From the NCBI GenBank assembly GCA_002404195.1, contig DHJF01000001.1, positions 1 through 52,542 of the forward strand: a stretch of 52,542 nucleotides of DNA, read 5' to 3'. Origin of the DNA: Candidatus Saccharibacteria bacterium UBA4727. Its GTDB lineage: Bacteria > Patescibacteriota > Saccharimonadia > Saccharimonadales > Saccharimonadaceae. Of this stretch, positions 13,673 to 41,395 are shown piece after piece (the first letter of the stretch is position 1; the number at the start of each line of letters is the position of its first letter). Both the position numbers and the translations under genes were made by a program. Below the pieces are notes generated by a model, which ran no database searches, had not been told where the DNA came from, and saw nothing but the letters and a program-made list of their open reading frames with translations.

Positions 13673-13790
13673 CGAGGAAATGAGTGAAAATACGGTATAT
13701 GAACACAACCCATCAATAATGAATAAACCATTGCATCACGAAGTATATGCTACAGTGAATGTATCCAGTAACGTAGTGGAGGTAACAGCT

Positions 13791-14402
13791 ATGAAGCGGT
13801 CACTCATTATGATAATCGGGGCATCCGGTAGCGGCAAAACAACGCTCGGGCGAAATGCTGCCGAAAACCTAAGCGCGGACATGTCAGTTGAGCACATTTC
13901 AACTGGCAACTTGGTTCGCCACATCGGCACAGGTGCCATCAAGTCCACGCACTATCAAACGCTCTTGAATCACTTAAACAGCCCAAAACCGAACGAGCGC
14001 TTCACTGATGAAGTCCTTTCTACTATCATTGGCGAAGCGCTAAATCGCACCGATGCCGACCTCGTCTTACTAGACGGCGCACCGCGCACTGCCGAGCAGC
14101 TCAGCCATGTCAACGAACTCGTCGCCAGAGATAATCGCCACTTAGCCGGGGCAATATTGGCGTTCGTCGCCACGAAAGAGACAGGCATCACTCGACTTTT
14201 AAAACGACGTCCGCGTGACTTTTCGCAGCAGATGAGTTACGACCAAGCAGCCGAGCAGCTCGCTTACTCAAGCGCACCACTCGAGCAAGTGGAAGACGCA
14301 CTCACCATGGGTGGCGTCCCCCTGCGCTACGTCGACACCTCAGGTCCGAAAATACAGACAGCCGCGTATGGTACATCTGTCATATATGACTTCTTGCAGT
14401 AG
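13791..14402 (+). CDS. Adenylate/nucleoside-monophosphate kinase-like P-loop protein
   Basis: MKRSLIMIIGASGSGKTTLG (Walker A) and ...LLDGAPRTAEQ, Adk-like. Start chosen at 13791 because GGAGG lies 9 nt upstream; the track start at 13617 overlaps gatC. Confidence 0.65.
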   Translation: MKRSLIMIIGASGSGKTTLGRNAAENLSADMSVEHISTGNLVRHIGTGAIKSTHYQTLLNHLNSPKPNERFTDEVLSTIIGEALNRTDADLVLLDGAPRTAEQLSHVNELVARDNRHLAGAILAFVATKETGITRLLKRRPRDFSQQMSYDQAAEQLAYSSAPLEQVEDALTMGGVPLRYVDTSGPKIQTAAYGTSVIYDFLQ

Positions 14403-30481: not shown

Positions 30482-31416
30482 CCGCGCTTTTTTTCTTCAA
30501 GATATTCACGAATTGATAAGGCGGCCGTTGCGCCTTCGCCGACCGCACTGGCAATCTGCATTGTCGCACCGCTGCGCGCGTCACCGCTAGCGAACACACC
30601 AGGAACAGTTGTCTCTAAGCGTTCATTTGTTTTGACAAGGCCTAGCTCGTCAAGCTCAACGCCGCTACCCGCGAGGAACTGAGTGTTTGGCTTGAGGCCA
30701 ACGAAGACAAAGACGCCATCAGTCGGAAAACTTGTTGGCATGCCTGCTTTGACGGCAGTTACTTCCGTGACTTTACCCTCCACAGTAACAATCTCACTCG
30801 GCGTCGTTTGCAAGTGAACGGTAATTTTTCCTGATTCAATATATTGCTGCAGGTCGTGTTGCAAAATTTCACTCGCCTTAATCGTACTACGCACCAATAA
30901 ATCGATATGCGTTGAAAAACGAGTCAGAAAGATTGCTTCTTGGACGCCGGAATTACCACCGCCAACAACAACCAATCGCTTCTCGCGGTAAAAGGCACCG
31001 TCGCAGGTTGCACAGTAGTGTACGCCACGGCCATAGTATTCCGCCTCGCCCGGAATACCAAGTTTGCTGTAGTCACTACCCGTCGCAATCAGAATAGTGC
31101 GCGCTTGCACATCTTTGCCGTCGACAACCAGTGTCTTTACGTCACCGTCGTCACGAATTGCTGAAACGTCACCAAAATCAATCACCGCGCCAAAACGCTC
31201 AGCTTGCTTTTGCAACTGGTCAGCGAGTGTTAGACCAGCGATACCATCAGCAAATCCAGGATAGTTATCGATTAAGTCGGTTGTCGCAGCCAAGCCGCCA
31301 ATGACACCTTTTTCATAGAGAATCGTCTCAATATCTTCACGCGTCGTATAGACGGCGGCGGCGAGTGCACTCGGTCCAGCGCCGACCATAACAACGTCAT
31401 GTACCTTATCGGTCAT
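30478..31416 (-). CDS. trxB: Thioredoxin-disulfide reductase
   Basis: 312 aa. VMVGAGPSALAAA, the CATCDG redox centre, GGGNSGVQEA. Confidence 0.9.
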   Translation of the reverse strand: MTDKVHDVVMVGAGPSALAAAVYTTREDIETILYEKGVIGGLAATTDLIDNYPGFADGIAGLTLADQLQKQAERFGAVIDFGDVSAIRDDGDVKTLVVDGKDVQARTILIATGSDYSKLGIPGEAEYYGRGVHYCATCDGAFYREKRLVVVGGGNSGVQEAIFLTRFSTHIDLLVRSTIKASEILQHDLQQYIESGKITVHLQTTPSEIVTVEGKVTEVTAVKAGMPTSFPTDGVFVFVGLKPNTQFLAGSGVELDELGLVKTNERLETTVPGVFASGDARSGATMQIASAVGEGATAALSIREYLEEKKRG

Positions 31417-40838: not shown

Positions 40839-40866
40839 TCGCTTCGTAGATTATTTCGATTTAAAA

Positions 40867-40894
40867 CTCCCCGTCACCACGACGGGGAGTTTTT
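40867..40894 (+). terminator. Intrinsic terminator of the MIP channel gene
   Basis: ctccccgtc-accac-gacggggag followed by TTTTT. Confidence 0.8.
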
Positions 40895-40904
40895 GTATAC
40901 AACC

Positions 40905-41376
40905 GTCATTCTAGACCTGATCCAGAATCCAGTAATTACTTCATCAGCTGAACTTCCTTCATCCTTTCTTCCTGGAAAGAAACAAAGCCCTTGTACTTTT
41001 TGCTTCAAAAGTACCAAAACCGTTTTAATTGAAAAAGACACGTCCTCGCGAACGATTCGACGAAAGTGGCTGGTTGCTTCTCGGGGTCGCTCACAGCCCC
41101 TGGCTCGGCACGAGGAGTGCGCGGCTCATGGCAAAGGGATTCTATTGATGACACTATGTGCTGTAGCTAGCGTGAGCCAGCCCTTCGGACTCTTCTGTCC
41201 GAGTGGAACTTGTCGCGGAGCGAGCCAAACGCCATGGGCGAGCTTATAGCTCCCCATAGAGTGCGCCCGAGAGAAGAACGGGTGCGGAGGGGTGGGTGGT
41301 AAGAAGTGTGGAGATTAAAACAGGGCGCAAGATACTAATCTATCACGACTGAATTCTGGATTGAGTCCAGAATGAC
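40905..41376. mobile_element. 472-bp non-coding element bounded by 28-bp imperfect terminal inverted repeats (MITE-like), G+C-rich and highly structured inside
   Basis: Left end is gtcattctagacctgatccagaatccag (40905-40932). The reverse complement of the right end (41349-41376) is gtcattctggactcaatccagaattcag, 23/28 identical. Each end is itself an 8-bp hairpin (ATTCTGGA-N5-TCCAGAAT). No credible ORF and no obvious target-site duplication. Confidence 0.35.
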
Positions 41377-41395
41377 ATTGCGACAAGCTTATCGT

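Follow-up and report, generated by a model that had tools for sequence, protein, structure and literature searches.

Within the window, the 52,542-nucleotide stretch that makes up contig C6 of a Candidatus Saccharibacteria assembly (UBA4727; 880 kb, 47 contigs, 92% complete), a 472-bp insert lies between two convergent genes, identified with Pfam as MIP (aquaporin) and RmuC. The insert is situated 3′ of the MIP terminator and directly ahead of the rmuC stop codon. Runs of N occur within several contigs of this genome. The locus contains the following features.

40863–40893, plus strand: intrinsic terminator of MIP, outside the insert; a 13-bp perfect stem (100% complementary), then a T-run.
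40904–40931, plus strand: left REP-type hairpin; tag CGTC at 40904–40907, 8-bp stem ATTCTAGA/TCCAGAAT, 5-nt loop CCTGA, tail CCA.
40932–41036, no strand assigned: left interior, A+T/C+T-rich, with no similarity to the other two copies in the genome.
40993–41014, inside the left interior: local hairpin GTACTTTT-N6-AAAAGTAC.
41037–41172, plus strand: upstream module, of which 41058–41172 is common to the copy on contig C11.
41173–41300, plus strand: hairpin element; long stem P1, in which CCAGCCCUUCG... pairs with ...CGGAGGGGUGG, capped by a conserved three-way-junction tip.
41218–41267, plus strand: conserved tip core; junction GAGCCAAA, then P4 (in the window CGC-C-AUGGG-C-GAGCU, loop UAU, AGCUC-CCCAU-AGA-GUG); tip model R1, 66.8 bits, E = 1.9e-11.
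41301–41349, plus strand: spacer from the hairpin element to the right REP, homologous in all three copies (AGA..GAGATTAAAA..CACGACTG).
41350–41377, minus strand: right REP-type hairpin; tag TGTC (a CGTC variant), stem ATTCTGGA/TCCAGAAT, 5-nt loop, tail TCA.

We consider it likely that the insert is composed of two parts, an outer pair of REP-type hairpins and a core that is a copy of a long hairpin-repeat family of Saccharibacteria. A second, degenerate tip was sought in the left halves of the inserts, and none was found. The 22-nt motif GACACGTCCTCGCGAACGATTC (GACACGTCCTCGCGAAYGATTC) at 41037–41058 lies 135–175 nt upstream of the hairpin in the window and in the same-genus genome G147 (L149, G147:C3; about 175 nt in this genome), and may belong to a larger common unit or to a promoter region.

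The first-pass annotation had described the 472 bp as a G+C-rich, highly structured, non-coding element, and these properties were confirmed. The G+C content is 0.605 at 41100–41299, compared to 0.41–0.45 in the flanks, and on either strand the 472 nt fold better than dinucleotide-shuffled sequences (z = -4.1 and -5.3). The 118-codon ORF, the composition of which had been called implausible, is present, with no support for coding. As had also been stated, no target-site duplication is visible at the insert, and no transposase was found with the insert or with such ends. The five helices that had been listed are all present in the sequence, whereas the position given for UUCGGAC/GUCCGAG was one base off (41184–41203). 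Among them, only GAGCU-UAU-AGCUC is part of the conserved fold; UUCGGAC/GUCCGAG and GCGCCCG/CGGGUGC are not preserved in the two paralogues and are rival pairings to the conserved long stem, and the GGCUCAUG...CGUGAGCC helix is affected by a partial deletion in the C11 copy. A consensus promoter and terminator scan of the insert revealed no convincing internal promoter and did not pick up the proposed TTGCTT-18-TTTAAT.

A scan against Rfam 15 assigned the insert to no known RNA family: nothing reached the gathering threshold over the insert, and the best E-values of a permissive scan were 1.3–5.4, for unrelated families. The loose resemblance to RNase P that had been pointed out is spurious; RNase P RNA gave no match in the insert, and the genuine gene is located on another contig (C24:15585–15918, 254.7 bits). 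An identity as SRP RNA or 6S RNA is unsupported, as their Rfam models matched neither the insert nor anything else in the genome, and three copies per genome and a patchy distribution also oppose such an identity. In the genome-wide search, the small and large bacterial SRP RNA models and the 6S model gave nothing at E <= 1, and RNase P RNA was readily found. The insert is not one RNA gene, and it is not RNase P-like.

For the ends of the insert, the comparison of 40905–40932 with the reverse complement of 41349–41376 gave 23/28 matches, as claimed, and a repeat search stretched the arms to 29 nt at 83% identity. Each end is itself a hairpin, as had been noted (left, ATTCTAGA-N5-TCCAGAAT; right, ATTCTGGA-N5-TCCAGAAT), so the two ends score as a direct and as an inverted repeat. 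The similarity is beyond chance, since the pattern was found 5 times in the forward and 4 times in the reverse direction in the 0.88-Mb genome, and 0 times in a backwards-read control.

CGTC-tagged REPs are defined by a terminal CGTC at one end, with TGTC and CCTC variants allowed, an 8–9-bp stem with complementary A/T at positions 1 and 2, a loop of 4–5 nt, and a short unpaired tail, mostly CCA, at the untagged end (PMC3733652). The end hairpins have the same build: a CGTC tag, an 8-bp stem ATTCTGGA/TCCAGAAT starting A-T, T-A, a 5-nt loop, and a CCA tail. The stem and loop ATTCTGGA-N5-TCCAGAAT were found in all end-hairpin copies. The tag is CGTC in 6/8 genomic copies, CGCA in one copy, and TGTC at the right end of the insert. 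The tail is CCA at the left end of the insert, in the C16 copy, and at the right ends of the C10 and C11 inserts; TCA at the right end of the insert; and CTA at the left end of the C10 insert, and two solo copies are fully symmetric. According to Di Nocera et al. (2013), CGTC-tagged REPs are located mostly 3′ of genes, have no dedicated transposase, and can, as inverted dimers, carry DNA between the partners; some of the Rickettsia palindromic elements (RPEs) were counted among them (PMC3733652). The end hairpins of this genome resemble such REPs and BIMEs in location also, being found 3′ of genes, solo (three copies, behind genes) and in inverted pairs, without a transposase. The REP build and the outward-facing tagged ends indicate that the apparent terminal inverted repeats are a REP pair, not transposon ends. 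The strict end-hairpin pattern was detected in 3 of the 151 sampled genomes of the same family, namely this genome (about 8 copies in 0.88 Mb), G075 (twice), and G144 (once), and was not found in three same-genus genomes. The end hairpins differ from described CGTC-tagged REPs in copy number, about 8 here and 2 in one other sampled genome, and in host, the described REPs having been reported so far from five other phyla. They also differ from REP dimers and BIMEs in that the pair around the insert is 414 bp apart and not adjacent. With the end hairpins, CGTC-type REPs would be extended to a new phylum.

BLAST and the tip covariance model each identified exactly three copies of the core in this genome, which are 74–77% identical.

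C6 (window): hairpin 41173–41300, tip 41218–41267, 66.8 bits.
C10: hairpin 31069–31199, tip 31113–31162, 64.9 bits.
C11: hairpin 13716–13836, tip 13751–13800, 47.0 bits.

All three copies are intergenic and lie between convergent genes, and all three have the hairpin, the spacer, and the right-hand end hairpin in common. C6 and C11 also have about 115 nt upstream in common, in a match that is 74% identical and continues from the upstream module through the hairpin element to 41301. The left-hand end hairpin is present in both C6 and C10, the total lengths of which are 472 and 464 bp, respectively.

The corresponding junctions in same-genus relatives are much shorter. The MIP/RmuC gap is about 60–75 bp, with one bidirectional terminator, in G010, G100, and G147, compared to 557 bp here. 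At the C10 site, the convergent flanking genes abut in G147 and G100, compared to 506 bp here, and at the C11 site the gap is 135–150 bp in the same two genomes, compared to 385 bp here. These shorter gaps indicate either that this lineage gained the inserts or that the others lost them. The insert is fixed in the species and shows no strain polymorphism at the four places compared, from four samples, all of which have the 557-bp gap with 0–1 differences; an identical RmuC is encoded on 13 contigs. No target-site duplication was found at C6, C10, or C11 or at the three copies of G075, and no exact insertion boundary was found, because the nearest genomes have diverged too far in their intergenic DNA. 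The C10 insert is preceded by a 6-nt inverted copy of the end of the host gene. Taken together, the 472 bp between MIP and rmuC probably represent a non-coding, non-autonomous, and lineage-specific insertion. In a genome of another genus (L161, G009:C6), the RmuC-MIP junction is about 740 bp long and contains an open frame on the RmuC strand and no hairpin insert, so different lineages have acquired different DNA at this junction.

The proposal that the insert is MITE-like was borne out in essence. MITEs keep terminal inverted repeats and make direct target duplications. The insert has three genomic copies, none of which is present at the corresponding site of same-genus genomes, and lacks a transposase, as would a MITE. 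In contrast, its "TIRs" are two self-palindromic REP copies that are not transposon ends and also occur solo, none were found that are shared with an autonomous IS, and no target-site duplication was found. The core resembles MITEs and ERIC, Correia/NEMIS, BOX, and RUP elements in being small, non-coding, multicopy, and a hairpin when transcribed, and in being present or absent between relatives and sometimes intragenic. Unlike MITEs, it has variable termini around a conserved centre, and no duplication was observed.

Every copy of the core family consists of a near-perfect 15–30-bp stem, the sequence of which is unrelated between loci, capped by the conserved tip. Most hairpins are 105–135 nt long, and that in the window is 128 nt. 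The tip, of about 70 nt, is a three-way junction in which P1b, a YUGU linker, P3, the junction (CG)AGCCRAR, P4, and a one-base linker follow one another, and the isolated segment 41173–41302 folds as the family rod. Across 56 model-aligned tips, the inner part of P4 is 100% paired, and 7 of the 12 P4 pairs change on both sides (e.g., AUGGG/CCCAU, ACGGG/CCCGU, and ACAGG/CCUGU). The observed covariation score was reached by 0/500 shuffles, and slid controls collapsed. The three-way junction is supported by 35 collinear tips, in which 4 of the 5 P1b pairs change on both sides. The tip is conserved both by sequence and by compensatory change, and the junction nucleotides are kept though unpaired. 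The modelled strand is the more stable in 43/54 copies, with a mean difference of -5.5 kcal/mol, an excess that is weak evidence because the copies are related and the regions were picked on the modelled strand. Some copies have a U-run after the stem. In one copy (L085:180–300), GGGCGAGCCAAACGCCATGGGCGAGCC is tandemly duplicated inside the tip. The motif GTAG, up to 16 nt upstream of the stem, was considered as a conserved foot motif and rejected: it occurs in just 13/75 copies, against a background of 3.8%, and is thus a subfamily trait and not a family signature. The explanation that all of this is chance similarity in an ordinary intergenic spacer has nothing to recommend it beyond the lack of annotation; given model matches at E = 1e-11 to 1e-12, 0 matches in the backwards-read control, and the covariation, its probability is negligible.

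Model R1 was positive in 14/151 sampled genomes of the same family, with 1–4 copies each, and in 1/3 same-genus genomes, whereas the improved model R2 gave no match in 146 genomes sampled from the phylum outside the family. When one genome of each prokaryote species was scanned with the pattern, 107 matches were obtained, about 22 of which have the full motif and the hairpin. These full-motif matches are in Saccharibacteria MAGs and in a few records labelled just "bacterium", and the remaining matches are due to chance, in G+C-rich coding DNA. The named relatives with the element are all Saccharibacteria MAGs, labelled Candidatus Saccharimonadales or Microsaccharimonas, and the element was found on at least 120 metagenome contigs. 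The copy counts given here take in orthologues and are not independent. For a phage or plasmid origin, blastn gave no match and viral contigs contained no match to the pattern, and nothing was found when viral contigs, phage records, and plasmid records were scanned for the family. A search of the literature for work linking Saccharibacteria to palindromic elements, MITEs, or structured RNA of this kind found none. The core hairpin family is undescribed, restricted to Saccharibacteria among the genomes sampled, and absent from Rfam.

Among 163 distinct tips, 32 lie in sense and 10 in antisense orientation within frames that extend without a stop for 80 codons or more to either side. The screen kept open frames only, so openness is weak evidence for translation. 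The in-frame hosts, identified with Pfam, are TsaD, Dus, SucC-SucD, TopA, a methyltransferase, MnmA, PolA, an ABC-F ATPase, RecG, and TruB, and in several of them the Pfam domain is split in two by the insert. In tsaD, the insertion site lies between HHVEAH and PLLALIVSGGH and adds 40–100 residues (L200, L210, L241, and L254); in dus, it follows GRGIFxxPFxF and adds about 40 residues (L185, L190, L192, and L231). L139 (G091) and L140 (G020) are also among the tsaD and dus copies. The tsaD and dus copies contain the same tip in the same reading frame, read in most of them as EEAVTG..SRTPRAGEATRKEYSE. The dus and tsaD genes of this genome have no insert, and in-frame insertion is found in family members elsewhere and not in the three copies of this genome. 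Copies thus land at the ends of genes as well as in frame within essential ones, in which they appear to be translated through.

In three methyltransferase orthologues, copies occupy the same site, between PKLAQIM and LDPFCGTG, in sense (L195 and L228) and antisense (L218) orientation; the opposite orientations suggest repeated insertion or inversion of the tip between the arms.

The intragenic copies could also be accounted for by an intron-like intervening sequence, in which the stem joins the borders, the element is cut from transcripts, and the ends are rejoined, so that insertions are harmless. Copies inside essential genes fit this account, as do arms that stay complementary though coding and diverged (the dus copies L185 and L190). 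We nevertheless regard it as highly improbable: no ribozyme or intron family was matched, and the 42 open-frame copies (32 sense and 10 antisense) speak against it, weakly, as the screen kept open frames only. An in-silico excision of the hairpin produced 34 apparent gene restorations, but the procedure was too permissive and included artefacts such as map-ftsA. A related idea, that the tip is an active nucleic-acid module, either an RNA removed from host transcripts or a structure driving its own hairpin copying with arms taken from the target, seems to us improbable as well, though a little less so. If true, its removed-RNA version would be a new kind of bacterial intervening sequence tolerated inside essential genes.

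With respect to neighbouring genes, 23 copies lie between convergent and 14 between divergent genes, and the orientation of copies between tandem genes is unbiased (24 sense vs 28 antisense). Orthologous copies across genera are found at map-ftsA (often as a mirror pair), beside a ROK gene (ROK-144 aa), and after RNase J. The tips of such same-position copies are about 95% alike, far more alike than the arms. Their persistence across genera, in sub-megabase genomes, suggests that a cellular role is under selection or that gene conversion has recurred.

These observations bear on the alternative that the element is a structured small RNA or a cis-acting 3′-UTR RNA, the tip of which binds a conserved protein or ligand and the stem of which provides stability or termination; the copies would then be paralogous genes, and the intragenic copies a by-product. 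This alternative is consistent with the strong covariation in P4 and P1b, the conserved unpaired junction nucleotides, the greater stability of the modelled strand, the U-run of some copies, and the persistence of copies at one position across genera. Because the element has been retained in genomes this small, a functional RNA stays a live possibility. Conversely, just 14/151 family genomes are positive and the element was not found in 2/3 same-genus genomes, its orientation relative to neighbouring genes is unbiased, it has no consistent neighbour gene and no convincing promoter in the consensus scan, and open-frame copies occur inside ORFs in both orientations. On balance, we hold this alternative to be possible but unlikely. 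Similarly, the suggestion of a novel structured RNA locus framed by REP-like hairpins was right in that the hairpins are REP-like (CGTC type) and the core is conserved, covarying, and outside Rfam, whereas the core family also inserts in frame into protein genes, which points less to an ordinary RNA gene than to a mobile hairpin element. Like the large, ornate structured RNAs of comparative genomics, the family has a conserved junction and covarying helices and is lineage-restricted and multicopy; its patchy presence, random orientation, and in-frame intragenic copies are unlike RNA genes.

Copies are gained and lost between close relatives, and they multiply within genomes as whole hairpins. 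In G075 and in G147, three near-identical copies each were found, the similarity of which ends at the stem foot, indicating that the whole hairpin is the copied unit. In the genome analysed here the copied unit is larger than the hairpin, as it includes the spacer and the right REP and, in C11, also the upstream module. In G028 (L150 and L157), the 72-nt tips differ at one base and the 25-bp arms are unrelated, which would be explained by movement of the tip alone or by gene conversion that makes the tips uniform. Chimeric contigs, represented by L266, carry the 5′ arm of dus followed by the 3′ flank of tsaD; in L266:7838–9670, one open frame runs from the N-terminal part of Dus across the tip to TsaD (profile positions 102–263). 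This frame is due either to two copies having recombined at the tip or to misassembly at the repeat. Gene conversion between copies could explain the identity of the tips, and such chimeras are in keeping with it.

In the dus copy of G020 (L140:1409–1630), the host codons ETTA form part of the 5′ arm, and their reverse complement makes up the outer 10 nt of the 3′ arm (TGCTGTTGTC), after which comes a partial direct repeat, GAACAAC. At least the outer arm therefore seems to have been made by inverted copying of host sequence, which hints that arms are built from the target in this way.

No mobilising enzyme for the element was found. In this genome (92% complete), no Y1 transposase (PF01797) was detected, and the best match to the TnpB domain (PF07282) was 12.8 bits, below the cut-off. 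Across the family, Y1-like genes (about 200 aa, MPxRN..YYHVYNRG) occur in 28/151 genomes and are weakly correlated with the element, being present in 6/14 element-positive and 22/137 element-negative genomes. No Y1 gene was found in the element carriers G075, which has three fresh copies, and G009, and the Y1 genes examined (L303–L310: G073, G135, G147, G027, G034, and G028) have unrelated palindromes of their own on their flanks, several of them lying between these like REPtrons. The first-pass annotation had also proposed an IS200/IS605-style remnant with a guide-like RNA, and an IS200/IS605-type (PATE) remnant with a guide-type (omega-like) RNA interior would account for the hairpin ends, the structured interior, and the Y1-like genes of the family. 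This proposal is largely refuted by the missing Y1 and TnpB domains, the Y1-free carriers, the unrelated palindromes of the Y1 genes, the end hairpins, which are inverted and not direct, and the lack of an Rfam match, and we give it very little probability.

The explanation that we favour, with moderate confidence, is that the core is an RPE-like non-autonomous mobile hairpin, nested here between REPs. RPEs are hairpin repeats of about 100–150 bp without a transposase of their own, found in intergenic DNA and in frame in housekeeping genes, where they are translated (PMC10969869). The Saccharibacteria family is likewise a set of transposase-less hairpin repeats of about 100–150 bp without coding capacity of their own, scattered in a reduced genome in intergenic DNA and in frame in unrelated housekeeping genes. 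It differs from RPEs in its host phylum, Saccharibacteria, and the likeness is one of behaviour only. In addition, RPE copies share their whole sequence, whereas conservation in the present family is limited to the tip, each copy having arms of its own, and the window copy is intergenic, between two REPs. We infer that the element would spread as a folded single strand, of which the tip, and not the ends, would be recognised by an enzyme supplied in trans and not encoded in this assembly. The arms may be renewed or extended by inverted copying of neighbouring host sequence, through template switching on the hairpin. This explanation is weakened by the failure to find an enzyme, a target-site duplication, or an exact boundary, by the copies at one position across genera, by the greater stability of the modelled strand, and by the larger copied unit of this genome. 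Moreover, an identity of about 75% marks the three copies as old, at least 4 samples have the identical insert, and nothing shows current mobility in this species. The window copy is probably neutral and would at most contribute a strong hairpin between the convergent MIP and rmuC.

Saccharibacteria and other CPR bacteria have sub-megabase genomes that are assumed to be poor in repetitive or selfish DNA. The family described here explains odd insertions in conserved CPR proteins as well as structured intergenic "RNA candidates" in these genomes, and its conserved centre and variable ends represent an unusual architecture that asks for a new mobilisation mechanism. As a family gained and lost between congeners, it would provide a second example, independent of that in Rickettsia, of "selfish DNA in protein-coding genes".
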